NCBI GenBank assembly: GCA_039802265.1
Contig: JBDRWI010000050.1
Span: forward strand, 1 to 16,413
Direction: 5' to 3'
Source: a candidate division WOR-3 bacterium
GTDB taxonomy: Bacteria > Hydrothermota > Tepidihabitantia > SM23-42 > JAOAFX01
Length of the DNA: 16,413 nt
Made by a program: the position numbers and the translations under genes. This document shows positions 10,128 to 15,420 of this stretch, piece after piece. Within the stretch, counting starts at the first letter, position 1, and the number at the start of each line of letters is the position of its first letter. The notes under the pieces were generated by a model that saw only the letters and a program-made list of their open reading frames with translations, ran no database searches and was not told the DNA's origin.

Positions 10128-10155
10128 TTGACTTGACCCCAAATTTTTATATAAT
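10128..10155 (+). promoter_or_regulatory. Sigma70-type promoter for tRNA-Asp
   Basis: TTGACT (10128-10133), 16 bp, TATAAT (10150-10155). Confidence 0.7.
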
Positions 10156-10185
10156 ATTGCCGGACCAAAATTCATTAAGGCAGAC

Positions 10186-10260
10186 GGGGTCGTAGTTCAG
10201 CTTGGTTAGAACGCCTGCCTGTCACGCAGGAGGTCGCGAGTTCAAATCTCGTCGGCCCCG
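10186..10260 (+). tRNA. tRNA-Asp (GTC), CCA not encoded
   Basis: Acceptor stem GGGGTCG/CGGCCCC + G73; anticodon arm CCTGC-CTGTCAC-GCAGG; T arm GCGAG-TTCAAAT-CTCGT. Confidence 0.97.
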
Positions 10261-10268
10261 TCCGTTAG

Positions 10269-11348
10269 TTATCTCCGTACCCCTGCCATCGTAAATATGC
10301 CAATCCCAATGAAAATAAAATTGGGTAGCCAGGCAGCCAGAAAAGGTTCCATTTCACCGGCATAGCCATAGGCACGGCATGATTGTATCAATCCCCAGTA
10401 AACAAATGCGATTACAATACTCATTCCCAGGCCAACGGCAATCCCGCCCCGACGCAGGACAACCGAAATGGGCAGGGCAATCAAAAGAAGAATTAGGGTA
10501 ATGACCGGAAAAGAAAAACGATAGTTCAATTCCACCTGTTCTTTTGCAACATTTTCACCTGCCCTCATTTTTCTCTTAACAAATTTTTGAATCTCAAGGA
10601 AGTTCATTTCTTCAACCGGCTTTATTCGACGTAGAAAGTCCTCCGGTTTTTCCGCAAGTTCCGGCAGGGGGTATTTATCGTAATTCGCAAGCGATTCGTT
10701 CCCCAATGTATCAAACTTGCGAATTGTAACATCCATAAACTCCCATACCCCTTGGTAGTGTGCAGAAACAGCATCAATCCTTTTTTCAATCCTCTGTTCT
10801 TTACCGAATTTCCAGAGGGTTACATTGGCCATTGTTGAATCACGGGCATTCAAATGTTTGATATAGTAGAGCCAATTGTCTTCACCATAGTAGAAGAAAT
10901 TGCGGCGCTGCTTCTCCACAGGCACTTGTCGGCGATCAATTTTCTCCATCTTATGACGATATAATTTCTCCTGCGCCCAGACCCCAATGGTTTCCTGAAA
11001 GACAAAGGTAAAAATAGAAATAAAAATACCAGCAATAATAATCAAAAAAAAGAGACTGTTAATATCCATACCATTGGATCTCAATGCCAACAATTCACGA
11101 TTTTTGGTCATATAGCCGAAGATAAAGAAGACCCCGATTATTGAGGCAATAGGAATTAAAAGAATGGTATAGGAGGGAGTAAGATATAGATAGTATACAA
11201 TAATATCCCAGAAGTGCACATTTTTTGATAGATAACTTCCAAGATTGTCAAAGAGATTGATGATGATATAAATAAATATCAGAACCAAGAGGGAAAGCAC
11301 AAAGTTTCTGAGATAATTACCCAATACATAGTGCTCAATGATCTTCAC
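10269..11348 (-). CDS. lptG: LPS export ABC transporter permease LptG (YjgP/YjgQ family)
   Basis: Three N-terminal TMs, NRELLALRSNG, periplasmic beta domain, PVEEMNFLEI, RFSFPV, three C-terminal TMs ending PFLAAWLPN. GTG start; follows lptF. Confidence 0.9.
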   Translation of the reverse strand: MKIIEHYVLGNYLRNFVLSLLVLIFIYIIINLFDNLGSYLSKNVHFWDIIVYYLYLTPSYTILLIPIASIIGVFFIFGYMTKNRELLALRSNGMDINSLFFLIIIAGIFISIFTFVFQETIGVWAQEKLYRHKMEKIDRRQVPVEKQRRNFFYYGEDNWLYYIKHLNARDSTMANVTLWKFGKEQRIEKRIDAVSAHYQGVWEFMDVTIRKFDTLGNESLANYDKYPLPELAEKPEDFLRRIKPVEEMNFLEIQKFVKRKMRAGENVAKEQVELNYRFSFPVITLILLLIALPISVVLRRGGIAVGLGMSIVIAFVYWGLIQSCRAYGYAGEMEPFLAAWLPNFIFIGIGIFTMAGVRR

Positions 11349-11361
11349 TTATTTTTCCTTT

Positions 11362-12624
11362 TTATCTTTCTCTTCCAATATTAAGGCTGGGGAAATTGAA
11401 TCTCAAATGTCCCTGTTCAGCAAGGATATATAGTATCAAACCAGGGACCACAAGAATAAAATTGGGTAGCCACATTCCTAAGAAAGGAGAGAACCCACGT
11501 TTGGCTGCAAACTCCTCACCGGTAAGTAAAAGGATGTAATAAAGCGAAAAGAGGATTATCCCTAAAAGTATTCCGGCAATCCCTCCCCTTTTGAAGAGAT
11601 ACCCGAGTGGTGCACCAATCAATAGAAAAACCAAAGAGATAAAGGCAAGGGAAAACTTTTTGTGAAACTCAACAAGATAACGAGAAAGATTCTGATTCTT
11701 GCTTTTGATGACGGAATTCTTCTGTTCAATGAGAAACCGGAGATTTGTAAGTTTCTGATGGTTGCCCACTAAAAAGTCATTTATTCCATCTCTGGCCATC
11801 TTGTTTATTTCTTCCTTCAGGCTATTTATTTCAAAAGTTATTTCTTTGATCCTTGCCATAAGCCTTTGCGCATCAAGTTCATCTTCACTTCTTGCCTTCC
11901 TCTCTCTTTTGATAAGTTCGGTATTCATTTTAATATTTAGCAACTGTCGGTCAAACCGTGTCTTCTGGTACTTGGTATTATCAATCAATTGATGGAGCTC
12001 GCCATTAAATAGAACAAACTGCATAATATCCTGTTCCTCAAGGTTATTTAAAATCCCTGTTGGTGCCGTGATGATTAAATTGTTTGCCAGGTCATAGATT
12101 GTAACATTAAATATCTGACCGGTGCGTTCATTCTTTTCGCCAATATAAATTGTATAGCCAGGGAATTCATTGGTAAATACTCCTTCACTTAAACGGACTG
12201 CCGGCCTTTTCCGTGCCACATCAAGCATCAAATTTCTTGCCCGATGATTTGCCTCGGGGAGTACGAAGTTATTGAAAAGTGTTAGGATAATCGTTATTAT
12301 AACAACAACAATGATAGGTGTCTTCATTATAGAAAAAAAAGAAAATCCGCTTACCTTTAATGCAAGAATTTCGTTGTCCTGACCGAATCTTCCAAAACTC
12401 ATCACTATAGCAACGAGAATTGCCATTGGTGTAGTATAAGAAACAATCAGAGGCAGGGTGTAGATAAGAATTTGACCAACAATGTCAAAGGATAAACCCT
12501 TACGAACAAAGAGGTCAATCAATCTGAATAGCTGGTCCATCAAGAGGATAAAGGTAAGGGCAAAGACAGAAAATAGAAAAGGGGGAATAAATTCTTTTAA
12601 AAAATACCGGTCAATAAGGCGCAT
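11362..12624 (-). CDS. lptF: LPS export ABC transporter permease LptF (YjgP/YjgQ family)
   Basis: MRLIDRYFLKEFIPPF, DNEILALKVSG, EGVFTNEFPG, VEFHKKFSLAF..LIGAPLG, GMWLPN. Confidence 0.9.
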   Translation of the reverse strand: MRLIDRYFLKEFIPPFLFSVFALTFILLMDQLFRLIDLFVRKGLSFDIVGQILIYTLPLIVSYTTPMAILVAIVMSFGRFGQDNEILALKVSGFSFFSIMKTPIIVVVIITIILTLFNNFVLPEANHRARNLMLDVARKRPAVRLSEGVFTNEFPGYTIYIGEKNERTGQIFNVTIYDLANNLIITAPTGILNNLEEQDIMQFVLFNGELHQLIDNTKYQKTRFDRQLLNIKMNTELIKRERKARSEDELDAQRLMARIKEITFEINSLKEEINKMARDGINDFLVGNHQKLTNLRFLIEQKNSVIKSKNQNLSRYLVEFHKKFSLAFISLVFLLIGAPLGYLFKRGGIAGILLGIILFSLYYILLLTGEEFAAKRGFSPFLGMWLPNFILVVPGLILYILAEQGHLRFNFPSLNIGRER

Positions 12625-13379
12625 TATTTTAGAAATCTCTTGTTCTTCATTCTATCAATTGCCTGCACAGCGCTGCTTATAGATACAGGTGCTTCTGGAT
12701 TCAATTCCGGTATCGGTTTAAGGATCTCCTGGTCAATCAGCCGCATATAGGGGAGGTAGAGATAGGAATTTGCTGGAATAGATTTTATGACGAAAAACTT
12801 CCTGGGATAGACCGGTGGAATCAGACGGTCTAAAATAGTAATAAAATTCGCCATAGTTATAGTATCTGAACCATAAAATTTCTGGTCTGGCGCACAGGTC
12901 AAATAACCTTTTGCGATGGTGTAACTGACTGGCTCCAAATCCGACCTTAGAGTTGTTGCTCCGGTAATAATCTCGGCGAGCAATGTGCGCGTCAATGGAA
13001 AATGGCAGTCAAGTCTTGAAAGAATTTCTGACTTCAAATTTAATAGCATTTTATATAATTCACTGAATTTACGACTCTGCCTGTAATATTGGAATAGATT
13101 CAAATAGACATTTTCGTCCGGGCTATCCTTTGATGCCAGTTCATTGAGGATTTTAATACATCTTTCAAATTTACCAAGGTGATAATAGCAGGAATAAAGA
13201 TAATAGAGCGTTGAATCTCCGGCTGGTGATTGATTATAAAATCTTTGAAAATACTCAGCCGCGCGCTCAAATTCTCCATTTTTATAGAATCTTATTCCCT
13301 CTTTGTAGTAATTGGGTTTAAAAAGAATGCAGGCAAAGAAGAACAGTATCAGGGGCCAAAGATGATGGCGACGCGGCAT
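12624..13379 (-). CDS. Putative lipoprotein with TPR repeats and SLH-like C-terminal motifs
   Basis: Lipobox-like LILFFFA-C; TPR-like helices (YYKEGIRFYKNGEFERAAEYF; LYYLYSCYYHLGKFERC); SLH-like GYL...DQKFYGSDTITMANFITILDR and LNPEAPVSISSA. Coupled to lptF by TAATG. Confidence 0.65.
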   Translation of the reverse strand: MPRRHHLWPLILFFFACILFKPNYYKEGIRFYKNGEFERAAEYFQRFYNQSPAGDSTLYYLYSCYYHLGKFERCIKILNELASKDSPDENVYLNLFQYYRQSRKFSELYKMLLNLKSEILSRLDCHFPLTRTLLAEIITGATTLRSDLEPVSYTIAKGYLTCAPDQKFYGSDTITMANFITILDRLIPPVYPRKFFVIKSIPANSYLYLPYMRLIDQEILKPIPELNPEAPVSISSAVQAIDRMKNKRFLK

Positions 13380-14065
13380 TCTTTGAGTAGATTCAAATTT
13401 TTCTTTGAACCATGTATCCTGCGGGCGTCATAAGAGGAAATCTGAATATCGTTATACTTCTGCCCCATGGTAGCAAGGGCACGGACTCTTAAAGGATTAT
13501 ATCCAGTTCTTGGATGATTATACAACTCTTCGGTTGTATATAAAACCAGCCCATTATCAACGAGCGAGCTTCGGCTGGCAAAGTTTACTGAATAGACCTC
13601 CTCCAATAATTCATTATAGATCTTTGGGAAGAGAGAGGGGTTGAATTTCAAGCCCCGGCAATCAATGATAATTCCTGTATATTCAATTGATTCAATCTCT
13701 TTTGGAACCAATTCCACACCCGGCGGGATTGGTTTATCCTTTGGCCATTCCTGACCACAGCAGGGACAGAGCATAGAAACAACAGGTTTTACCGAATTCT
13801 GTTCAGGAATGAGGAGGGTGATAATCCTGGAACCGAGTTTAAGGCGGAAGGAATATTCGGTATTCCCATCGGTCAGATAGTGTTGATTTACAATAATATC
13901 GGCATTGATTATCTCCTCAAGGCGCTGGCGGCGCTTTAAATCCATGGCTAAAAAGTCACCAACTGTTTGCCGGGCATCATATTGAATGGCGAAGAACTCC
14001 TTTTTGAGGCTATCCCGGGCATTTATTGAACCGGAGACTTTAAGTGTCATATCCTTCCAGTCCAT
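13349..14065 (-). CDS. LPP20-lipoprotein-like envelope protein (start uncertain: 14065 or leaderless 14200)
   Basis: YTGIIIDCRGL.FNPSLFPKIY...EVY and NPLRVRA...DIQIS..DA resemble the conserved C-terminal domain of proteins annotated as LPP20 family. The frame stays open upstream through tRNA-Gly to 14206. Confidence 0.65.
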   Translation of the reverse strand: MDWKDMTLKVSGSINARDSLKKEFFAIQYDARQTVGDFLAMDLKRRQRLEEIINADIIVNQHYLTDGNTEYSFRLKLGSRIITLLIPEQNSVKPVVSMLCPCCGQEWPKDKPIPPGVELVPKEIESIEYTGIIIDCRGLKFNPSLFPKIYNELLEEVYSVNFASRSSLVDNGLVLYTTEELYNHPRTGYNPLRVRALATMGQKYNDIQISSYDARRIHGSKKNLNLLKECRVAIIFGP

Positions 14066-14110
14066 CTCGGCATGGACAAAAAGATAAAATGCAAGAAAAA
14101 GAAAAGATAG

Positions 14111-14182
14111 AGCGGGCGACGGGATTTGAACCCGCGACCCTCGGCTTGGGAAGCCGATGCTCCACCGCTGAGCTACACCCGC
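14111..14182 (-). tRNA. tRNA-Gly (CCC), CCA not encoded
   Basis: Minus strand GCGGGTGTAGCTCAGCGGTGGAGCATCGGCTTCCCAAGCCGAGGGTCGCGGGTTCAAATCCCGTCGCCCGCT; anticodon arm TCGGC-TTCCCAA-GCCGA; U73. Confidence 0.96.
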
Positions 14183-14206
14183 AGATAGTTGATTTAACAT
14201 TATCAT

Positions 14207-14234
14207 ATTATATTCAAAATACCGATTATGTCAA
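14207..14234 (-). promoter_or_regulatory. Consensus sigma70 promoter for the tRNA-Gly...lptFG unit
   Basis: Minus strand TTGACA (14234-14229), 16 bp, TATAAT (14212-14207). Confidence 0.8.
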
Positions 14235-14453
14235 TCCCCACCTTGCCCGATACAAAAACTCCTGCCGCCGGTGATTAAGTAGCCAAGATATTCCATTGTA
14301 TAAAAGATTCGGAGAATTCCAATACCAATTATAAATCCGAAATTATAAATAAATAGGTACAGAACCAAACCCTATCCCATTTCCGAGTATAAGCCAATTG
14401 CCATAGCTTATTTTTCGGATTATCTTCTCAAGGAGGGCATTTAAATCGCATAG

Positions 14454-14481
14454 TTGACATTTGGCAAAATTTGAATATAAT
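14454..14481 (+). promoter_or_regulatory. Consensus sigma70 promoter for secG-rplU-rpmA
   Basis: TTGACA (14454-14459), 16 bp, TATAAT (14476-14481); AAGGAG RBS follows. Confidence 0.8.
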
Positions 14482-14506
14482 GAGGAAAGGTTAAGGAGAT
14501 ATAGCG

Positions 14507-14851
14507 ATGTATGGCATAATCTTGGTCTTCCATGTCCTTATCTGCATTCTATTGATTATCGTGGTCCTTCTGCAGCAAACAAGGGGTGCCGGAATGTCTA
14601 GTGTTTTTGGTGGTGGAGGTGGCAGTGAGTCAATATTTGGGGGTAAGGGGGCCACTCCATTCTTTATAAAATTGACCTCTGGACTGGCGATCGGCTTTTT
14701 TATTACCTCGCTCTCTCTTGTACTTCTTTCAAAAAGGCCCCTACCTAAGTCTGCGGTGGAAAGGAAGTTGCAGACTGAGATGCCCGTGTCTCCAGTACCG
14801 GCGATCCCTTCTGAAGAACCAAAGATTCCAAAAGAATCCGGGGGTGAATAG
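14507..14851 (+). CDS. secG: Preprotein translocase subunit SecG
   Basis: TM1 ending VVLLQQTRGAGMSSVFGGGG, Gly-rich loop, TM2 KLTSGLAIGFFITSLSL, Pro/Glu-rich tail. Confidence 0.93.
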   Translation: MYGIILVFHVLICILLIIVVLLQQTRGAGMSSVFGGGGGSESIFGGKGATPFFIKLTSGLAIGFFITSLSLVLLSKRPLPKSAVERKLQTEMPVSPVPAIPSEEPKIPKESGGE

Positions 14852-15168
14852 TGTTTGCGGTAATAAAGGCCAGCGGATTTCAGTATGTTGTCAAAAAGGG
14901 CGAAAGGATTATCATTCCTGCCATCTTGGGCACGCCCGGTAAGGAAATTGAGTTTGACCGTGTCCTGATGCTCAAGAGTGAAAAGGGGACGGAGATTGGC
15001 AAACCATATCTTAATGGGGTCAAGATTAAAGGGATAGTAAAAAGAACCGGGAGATTCCCCAAGGCAATTATTTATAAATTCATACGCCGGGAGAATTATC
15101 GTCGTAAAAAGGGGCATCGTCAGTCATTTACCGAGGTGGAGATAACCGATATTACGAAAGGGGGTTAA
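14851..15168 (+). CDS. rplU: 50S ribosomal protein L21 (bL21)
   Basis: MFAVIKASGFQYVVKKG...IGKPY...YRRKKGHRQSFTEVEI. The GTG start overlaps the secG stop (TAGTG). Confidence 0.96.
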   Translation: MFAVIKASGFQYVVKKGERIIIPAILGTPGKEIEFDRVLMLKSEKGTEIGKPYLNGVKIKGIVKRTGRFPKAIIYKFIRRENYRRKKGHRQSFTEVEITDITKGG

Positions 15169-15420
15169 ATGGCACGCAAAAAAGGTGCTGGTGTTGCAAA
15201 GAATGGAAGAGATTCCCCAGGCAAACGACTGGGTGTAAAAAGATTTGATGGCGAATTGGTAAATATTGGCACAATTCTTGTGCGACAACGGGGCACGACT
15301 ATCCACCCTGGACTGAACGTAGGATTGGCAAAGGACTATACCCTATATGCCCTTACGTCGGGCAGGGTAAAGTTTGGTTATCGACAGGGTGGTAAAAGAG
15401 TCGTTTCGGTTTTGCCCTGA
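15169..15420 (+). CDS. rpmA: 50S ribosomal protein L27 (bL27)
   Basis: [52 protein letters not shown]. Confidence 0.97.

Follow-up and report, generated by a model that had tools for sequence, protein, structure and literature searches.

A reading frame through an intact tRNA-Gly(CCC) gene in a candidate division WOR-3 bacterium and its fused and putatively coupled counterparts in related genomes

tRNA genes and coding frames on the same strand are normally treated as exclusive. In a 16,413 nt stretch of DNA from a candidate division WOR-3 bacterium (positions 1 to 16,413 of contig JBDRWI010000050.1, hereafter the window), a frame that opens at a promoter runs through a complete tRNA-Gly(CCC) gene and on into a protein gene, and the question is whether ribosomes follow it. 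Comparison with related genomes makes it likely that they do, starting at +1 and crossing the tRNA to reach the downstream genes. The layout itself is real and conserved, in fused and coupled forms and at three tRNA loci. Fusion proper is known from only two species at the Gly locus; the layout appears to be a wider and older feature of the lineage, often realized by coupling instead of fusion, a point missed by an earlier note on this DNA.

The promoter of the frame is of the sigma70 type (14207..14234, minus strand) and matches TTGACA-16-TATAAT at 12 of 12 consensus positions, as the earlier note had read it. Its 16 nt spacing is the norm of the genome (421 of 483 strong sites, that is, sites matching at 11 or more of 12 positions). 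ATG 14200 lies 6 nt past the −10 element, at the putative +1, and is followed by open codons, 283 in all, up to the stop at 13349. The predicted leaderless start, with its six codons MLNQLS (14183..14200, minus strand), would double as the 5′ leader of the pre-tRNA. Next come the intact tRNA-Gly(CCC) (14110..14182, minus strand; 14182-14110 by ARAGORN, 14182-14111 by Rfam), read in frame as AGVAQRWSIGFPSRGSRVQIPSPA, then LSFLFLAFYLFVHAE and then MDW, so that the stop-free passage through the tRNA into the gene is confirmed along with the position of the ATG. The tRNA scores 69.2 bits against the RF00005 threshold of 29, retains its anticodon, has no encoded CCA end and is identical over 73 nt (100 %) to the copy in the sister genus; no Gly(CCC) gene besides the window copy was found in the assembly. 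A second in-frame ATG, 14206, adjoins the −10 element directly and is probably not transcribed. No in-frame ATG, GTG or TTG lies between 14200 and 14065 and no SD-like motif lies upstream of ATG 14065, both as previously reported, and ATG 14065 is paired within a predicted hairpin. A scan of the window and of the surroundings of the Val and Ala loci treated below against Rfam returned tRNAs only.

Behind the fused gene lie a TPR protein gene (12624..13379, minus strand), which has no SD-like motif and shares its first 31 nt with the end of the upstream gene, and two lptF/G-family permease genes (11362..12624 and 10269..11348, minus strand; both PF03739). On the plus strand, a tRNA-Asp(GTC) with its own promoter (window 10128-10263) ends 5 nt short of the stop codon of the lptG-type gene that converges on it, with no terminator-like sites listed between the two. 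Also on the plus strand (window 14454-15420), a divergent 12/12 promoter precedes secG (PF03840) and two ORFs that we take to resemble rplU and rpmA.

An assembly artefact is unlikely, because contigs from sequencing runs of a second study bridge each junction. Positions 13300-14157 (X3, X6) and 14133-14345 (X3, X6, X8) are covered, the gene-tRNA and tRNA-promoter junctions being bridged separately with no piece spanning both, and each piece has 1–3 differing letters. The open frame across the tRNA was rejected as evidence in itself, since no stop interrupts 52 of the 120 tRNA frames of the genome, a caveat that the earlier note had rightly raised. A TGG in the Gly D-loop, considered as an adaptation to translation, was likewise unsupported, since SD-type loci and the Gly(GCC) paralog have it too.

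Across the genome, 141 of 483 strong promoters (about 29 %) have an ATG 5–8 nt past the −10 element that opens an ORF of at least 100 codons, with 54, 46, 25 and 16 cases at 5, 6, 7 and 8 nt and 0–10 at most other distances. The peak is smaller for GTG and there is none for TTG. ATG 14200 fits this pattern, and the leaderless start suggested in the earlier note for the frame of the protein gene is backed both by the genome-wide peak and by the relatives described below. SD-led genes occur in the genome too, many of them behind tRNAs. The missing SD at the genome's leaderless starts was discarded as evidence; it is trivial because that stretch is promoter. No papers on leaderless translation together with WOR-3 were found in the open-licence PMC and bioRxiv literature.

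The Gly locus was compared over 47 tRNA-holding loci. Each GTDB genome fetched contributed one, and nine came from metagenomes, four of these nine apparently being close kin of included genomes. Excluded were L019, L044, L047 and L048 (cut or without tRNA), L025 and L026 (tRNA missing there) and three unfetched genomes; outside the comparison too was G001, a genome of the window genus whose contig ends inside the TPR gene and in which no Gly(CCC) copy was found. At 35 of the 47 loci the tRNA is followed by an SD-led start and an own signal peptide, one of these loci having a crossing GTG at 5 nt and one more a crossing start at 10 nt with a weak promoter match. At the other 12, an ATG or GTG lies 6–9 nt past the −10 element, the frame crosses the tRNA and no SD-like motif precedes the next gene. 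The same in-frame fusion is present in a second species (L037), with 73 % identity in the mature part. Its ATG lies 7 nt past the −10 element and 21 nt before the tRNA (18 nt in the window), there is no SD, and its tRNA-to-MxW distance is 12 nt longer; these changes of +3 nt before and +12 nt after the tRNA keep the frame, in line with the multiples of three that the earlier note had called for. L037 has no TPR gene, and its fused gene runs into lptF. Stops between promoter and coding sequence in orthologs, which the earlier note had held to speak against its reading, are formally present, between tRNA and gene, at 35 of the 47 loci, but each of these has an SD, a start and a signal peptide of its own and would represent the ancestral state. 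A scan of genome contigs with alignment A1 yielded no relatives, and a search with residues 5-52 no further fused proteins (six candidates, none scored).

In the sister genus the gene has been lost, with no ortholog-level match in 11 genomes. At all ten of its loci an ATG or GTG 7–9 nt past the −10 element opens a frame that crosses the tRNA. Two different frames are used among the ten, and the stop lies 1–2 nt before the TPR start in five, overlaps it in two and lies 21–38 nt before it in three. No SD-like motif was found ahead of the TPR start at these ten loci. A tree of the TPR protein, without L037 (which lacks the gene), places the window genus and the sister genus in one clade (99/96). 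The SD-led state would thus most simply be ancestral, and the fusion would be derived, since at the 35 other loci the tRNA is followed by a separate SD, start and signal peptide. Partial copies of tRNA-Gly(CCC) were observed beside the intact gene at L005/L059 (G003), L211, L214, L219, L046, L223 and L224, as 3′ pieces on its downstream side or 5′ pieces on its upstream side, resembling integration scars. Events of this kind could explain the loss of the spacer with SD and start.

The protein reached by the frame (13349..14065, minus strand; 238 aa in its predicted mature, exported form) has the predicted fold of domains 1 and 2 of Tp0624. A structure model built from a 62-sequence alignment (pLDDT 93.8) matches Tp0624 (PDB 5JIR) with a Foldseek E of 5.6e-16 and TM of 0.73, and with Z 21.6 and rmsd 2.4 over 212 aligned residues. 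The protein aligns end to end with Tp0624 chain 71-319, at 22–27 % identity in structural alignments, and the OmpA-like C-terminal domain is absent from it, domain 3 of Tp0624 beginning only at 332. The 'LPP20-like' label of the earlier note was abandoned: the mature protein has no match to PF02169 at the family threshold, and no family was found for it in Pfam (E≤0.1) or NCBIfam. An Atlas lead of 0.89 points to a cluster with 13 % PF02169; the H. pylori Lpp20 structure matches the first domain weakly (Z 5.4, rmsd 3.6, 79 aligned). A dN/dS of about 0.10 against L037, with dS close to saturation, indicates purifying selection on the gene. The linker between the two Tp0624-like domains carries the motif CPCCGQEW (residues 100-107 of the mature protein, window 13765-13745 region), whose C, P, C and W are invariant over the 62 aligned homologs and which is possibly metal- or disulfide-binding.

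ATG 14065 appears to be a methionine of the mature part, and MxW a mature-part motif, because homologs have signal-peptide-like residues in front of the MxW-like motif. These number at least 11 (median 21.5) in 90 of 117 homologs, ending in AE in 40 and in AD in 26, so that homologs do not as a rule begin at MDW without a signal peptide, a pattern that the earlier note had proposed to look for. The remaining 27 have a different motif (most of them still hydrophobic at the N-terminus) or were called short. Homologs carry names that indicate candidate division WOR-3. In the window, LSFLFLAFYLFVHAE (14066..14110, minus strand), which carries one strain variant (S>F at 14106), may be the remnant h/c-region of the ancestral signal peptide, without SD, start codon or n-region, and the tRNA-encoded residues are predicted to form its basic n-region. 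The 45-residue leader holds 3 K+R and ends in AE, as do those of 40 of the 90 homologs, with VHA|E as the putative cleavage site; its best 11-residue hydropathy is 2.41 against a homolog median of 2.82, and 17 % of shuffles reach 2.41. Hydrophobicity behind the tRNA was rejected as evidence, since all three frames are hydrophobic and shuffles of the spacer are equally so in 17 % of cases for the window and 7 % for L037, which bears out the earlier caveat that T-rich spacers encode such residues by chance. Because stop-free tRNA frames and hydrophobicity are each frequent by chance, the case rests on comparison, and it is comparative evidence, from the second fused species and from the leaders of homologs, that backs the proposal that the tRNA-crossing frame provides the signal peptide.

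The gene might instead be translated from the 3′ fragment left by tRNA cleavage, or simply from ATG 14065, as a cytoplasmic protein to which the upstream ATG and frame are incidental. Databases mostly place the start at MDW or later, four of six calls for the two fused species omitting the leader (P0002, P0122, P0003 and P0123), and open tRNA frames are, as noted, common. Further points of this kind come from 20 hand-picked Gly loci in other families of the class. There are no fusions among them, and five (G057, G200, G246, G228 and G251) have an SD-less start 4–26 nt behind the tRNA with no crossing ORF, which shows that another route to the downstream gene exists. Three have a crossing ATG: in G183 the stop of the ORF overlaps an SD-less start as ATGA, and in G155 and G245 it ends well before any gene start. 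For the window, however, translation from the fragment or from ATG 14065 is judged improbable: the fragment would have a leader of 44 nt with its AUG in the predicted hairpin, the signal peptides on homologs assign MxW to the mature part, and both fused species combine an ATG at +1 with an in-frame hydrophobic stretch ending in xE. SD-less genes 2–13 nt after the tRNA 3′ end, with no crossing ORF, were also observed at L198, L208, L210, L212, L213 and L223; tRNA 3′ processing may itself create near-leaderless messages.

Translation of the tRNA could also be real and yet serve only to deliver ribosomes to the TPR-lptF-lptG genes, the long leader being no working signal peptide and the product an uncleaved anchor or a decaying gene. 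The sister genus, which keeps a short ORF without the gene, is in keeping with this, as are an independent loss of the gene in G023 and a leader hydropathy no higher than that of shuffles; an uncleaved anchor is considered possible for Tp0624 (PMC5104382). Such a role alone is nevertheless improbable, given that the mature part has a dN/dS of about 0.10, that two species keep the frame into the gene and that L037 dropped the TPR gene yet retains the fused gene ahead of lptF. In the G023 locus (L110), which is counted among the 35 SD-led loci, all that is left of the gene is the SD, the start and a remnant of the signal peptide, forming a 28-codon ORF with its stop 5 nt ahead of the TPR start.

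Among 25 promoter-proximal tRNAs in the window genome, three have an ATG at 5–8 nt, namely Gly(CCC), Val(GAC) and Ala(CGC), and in all three the frame crosses the tRNA and then fuses with the next gene or stops 2–4 nt before it. The tRNA-Val(GAC) gene (G000:C68:4691-4900; L076, L141-L190) lies upstream of a CdsZ-like zinc-ribbon gene (below the family cut-off). In the best 30 loci of the order, 29 hold the tRNA and all 29 have a crossing in-frame ATG at 5–10 nt; further hand-picked loci of the class have a crossing frame in 20 of 20 (15 ATG or GTG, five TTG), the five TTG starts being weaker cases, as the window genome has no leaderless peak for TTG. The stop falls within −7 to +28 nt of the next start at 47 of 49 loci, over spacers of 6–218 nt. 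When each genus is represented by a single locus, 28 of 30 stops fall in this interval against 15.3 expected from spacer shuffles; the interval was picked post hoc, and kin loci are non-independent. GAGG motifs precede 11 of 30 Val-locus genes, which might start independently. The gap between G15 and G18 is 4 nt in 48 of 49 Val(GAC) loci and 2 nt in paralogs of the window genome; by hand-reading, 2 or 3 nt there would bring a stop into the common Val frame. In the lone 3 nt case (G018), the start lies one frame over and the downstream frame is unchanged. In other classes of the phylum, 11 of 20 loci hold Val(CAC), and in two of these 11 an ORF crosses the tRNA, falling short of the next start by 45 and 104 nt. 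The Val(GAC) locus is the cleanest example of the layout, with a class-wide crossing frame, an unusually long D-loop and predicted coupling.

The tRNA-Ala(CGC) gene (G000:C40:20987-21096; L075, L111-L140) lies 8–29 nt ahead of a gene for pyruvoyl-dependent arginine decarboxylase (TIGR00286). The tRNA is held by 29 of 30 loci, and 10 of the 29 have a crossing ATG at 6–11 nt (offsets were hand-read where matches begin at residue 2). Six of these ORFs end on or within 4 nt of the start, three overlap it by 29–41 nt and one is fused (G047); in G001, of the window genus, no ORF crosses the tRNA. At a tRNA-Leu(CAG) (G000:C28:3900-4040; L077), a GTG 4 nt past the −10 element opens a 33-codon frame across the tRNA, followed by two tiny ORFs, the last of which overlaps the SD-less start of a 466-codon gene. 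As a background sample, not a survey, GTDB was searched for TATAAT-N5-8-ATG before a tRNA-like start, giving at least 118 stretches. Among the 80 examined, from other lineages, 72 had a tRNA call; 29 of the 72 were crossed, and two or three of the frames ended near the start of a long ORF. Saccharibacteria tRNA(CAT) loci (L237, L244, L251, L252, L266, L272, L274, L286, L288 and L289) have an ATG 21 nt upstream and an open frame of 33–50 codons across the tRNA; no long ORF start was found near the stops of these frames.

The Val loci also bear on whether the crossing ORFs act mainly on the pre-tRNA, by ribosome shielding or by transcription-translation coupling against premature termination, or through a short peptide, with delivery to the next gene secondary. 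Crossing ORFs in G002, G189 and G005 end far from the next start, and the core of the Val peptide is constant over the class sample. That constancy, however, follows from the constancy of the tRNA, two different frames are in use at the Gly locus, and 47 of 49 Val stops track the next start; a role of this kind is very improbable.

With the layout and its conservation as the observations, the remainder, from the start site through translation, export and cleavage to coupling and the order of the evolutionary steps, may be reconstructed as follows. A single transcript would begin at about 14200, on the AUG itself. Either it is cut and tRNA-Gly(CCC) is set free, or a ribosome binds at the leaderless AUG and translates its way through the tRNA sequence, unwinding it and giving a 283-aa preprotein in which the tRNA-encoded residues would act as the long basic n-region of a Sec-type signal peptide. 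From there the ribosome would be passed on, through translational coupling, to the TPR gene, which has no SD, and to the lptFG-type genes. Because excision of the tRNA separates the gene from its start, the two fates would exclude each other in any one molecule. The ancestor would have had a gene with its own SD, start and signal peptide behind the tRNA. In the common ancestor of the window genus and the sister genus, SD and start would have been lost and the +1 start gained; the sister genus would later have lost the gene body, with the frame across the tRNA surviving as a short leader ORF that ends near the TPR start. Past the cloverleaf, a ribosome would thus either continue into the gene (window, L037, G047) or terminate and reinitiate. 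The combination of leaderless start, intact tRNA and fusion or stop/start coupling seems fixed at Val(GAC) in the class sample, and the same device may be used at Ala(CGC) in part of the order.

Several parts of this arrangement are familiar. Leaderless mRNAs carry their AUG at +1 and have no SD; here, in contrast, the first codons double as a pre-tRNA leader. Co-transcripts of tRNA and mRNA are known in E. coli (thrU-tufB, metY-nusA, secG-leuU), where one transcript gives a tRNA and a protein, and the 35 SD-type Gly loci resemble them. In co-transcripts of the thrU-tufB type the coding frame does not include the tRNA and the message can survive its excision, whereas here cutting takes away the start codon. 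Dual-function RNAs such as tmRNA combine a structural and a coding role in one RNA, but the ORF of tmRNA lies outside its tRNA-like domain, whereas here the tRNA itself would be decoded and the two uses would be mutually exclusive in each molecule.

In termination-reinitiation, the stop codon either overlaps the next start or is a few nt away from it (ATGA, TAAnnATG), with a varying contribution of the SD (PMC6728339, PMC12548453). Stops near or overlapping the start at seven of 10 sister-genus Gly loci and 47 of 49 Val loci (−7 to +28 nt) are similar, although some overlaps are long; an intact tRNA gene makes up most of the upstream ORF here, which in the window is fused, not coupled. The passages of a coupling review on this subject mention tRNA just as a translation factor (PMC6728339). 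An E. coli study found no coupling at −25 nt spacing (PMC12548453), a value exceeded by the overlaps of 25–31 nt at 12 Val loci and at the window TPR start. tREPs resemble the present case in that a peptide sequence is read off a tRNA gene, but they were translated in silico and chemically synthesized, with natural translation not claimed in the description given (PMC9178612). Treponema pallidum Tp0624 shares the fold of domains 1 and 2 and a predicted export with an unusually long signal peptide (about 60 residues), and differs in having the OmpA-like third domain that is missing here (PMC5104382). The layout would act much as a leaderless upstream ORF with translational coupling does and, in the window, as an extended signal peptide. 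No described system with a coding frame through a tRNA body was found in the open-licence PMC and bioRxiv literature. Leaderless start, coupling and co-transcription are each known; as far as that literature goes, their combination through a tRNA body is the new element.

At three loci, whether the frame is fused or coupled, selection appears to act on the whole of a tRNA in two capacities, as tRNA and as codons, and annotation mostly truncates genes of the fused type. A single transcript probably acts as either a tRNA precursor or a messenger. The loci offer ready constructs in which 70S initiation, unwinding of the cloverleaf by ribosomes and processing by RNase P and RNase Z compete on one RNA, and they suggest a fresh look at tRNA-adjacent genes in other leaderless-rich lineages. 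Self-decoding, through the GGG codon inside the Gly frame, was set aside as a feedback sensor; it is speculation and is not kept in loci that use the other frame. As a tentative proposal, which we hold possible but somewhat doubtful as a whole, intact tRNA genes would serve this class of bacteria as leaders that are translated: ribosomes loading at the +1 AUG would compete with the tRNA-processing nucleases, the balance of tRNA and message would be a sensor linking the state of translation to the downstream genes, among them the lptFG-type unit for LPS export, and the D-loop of Val(GAC) would have been reshaped for translatability.
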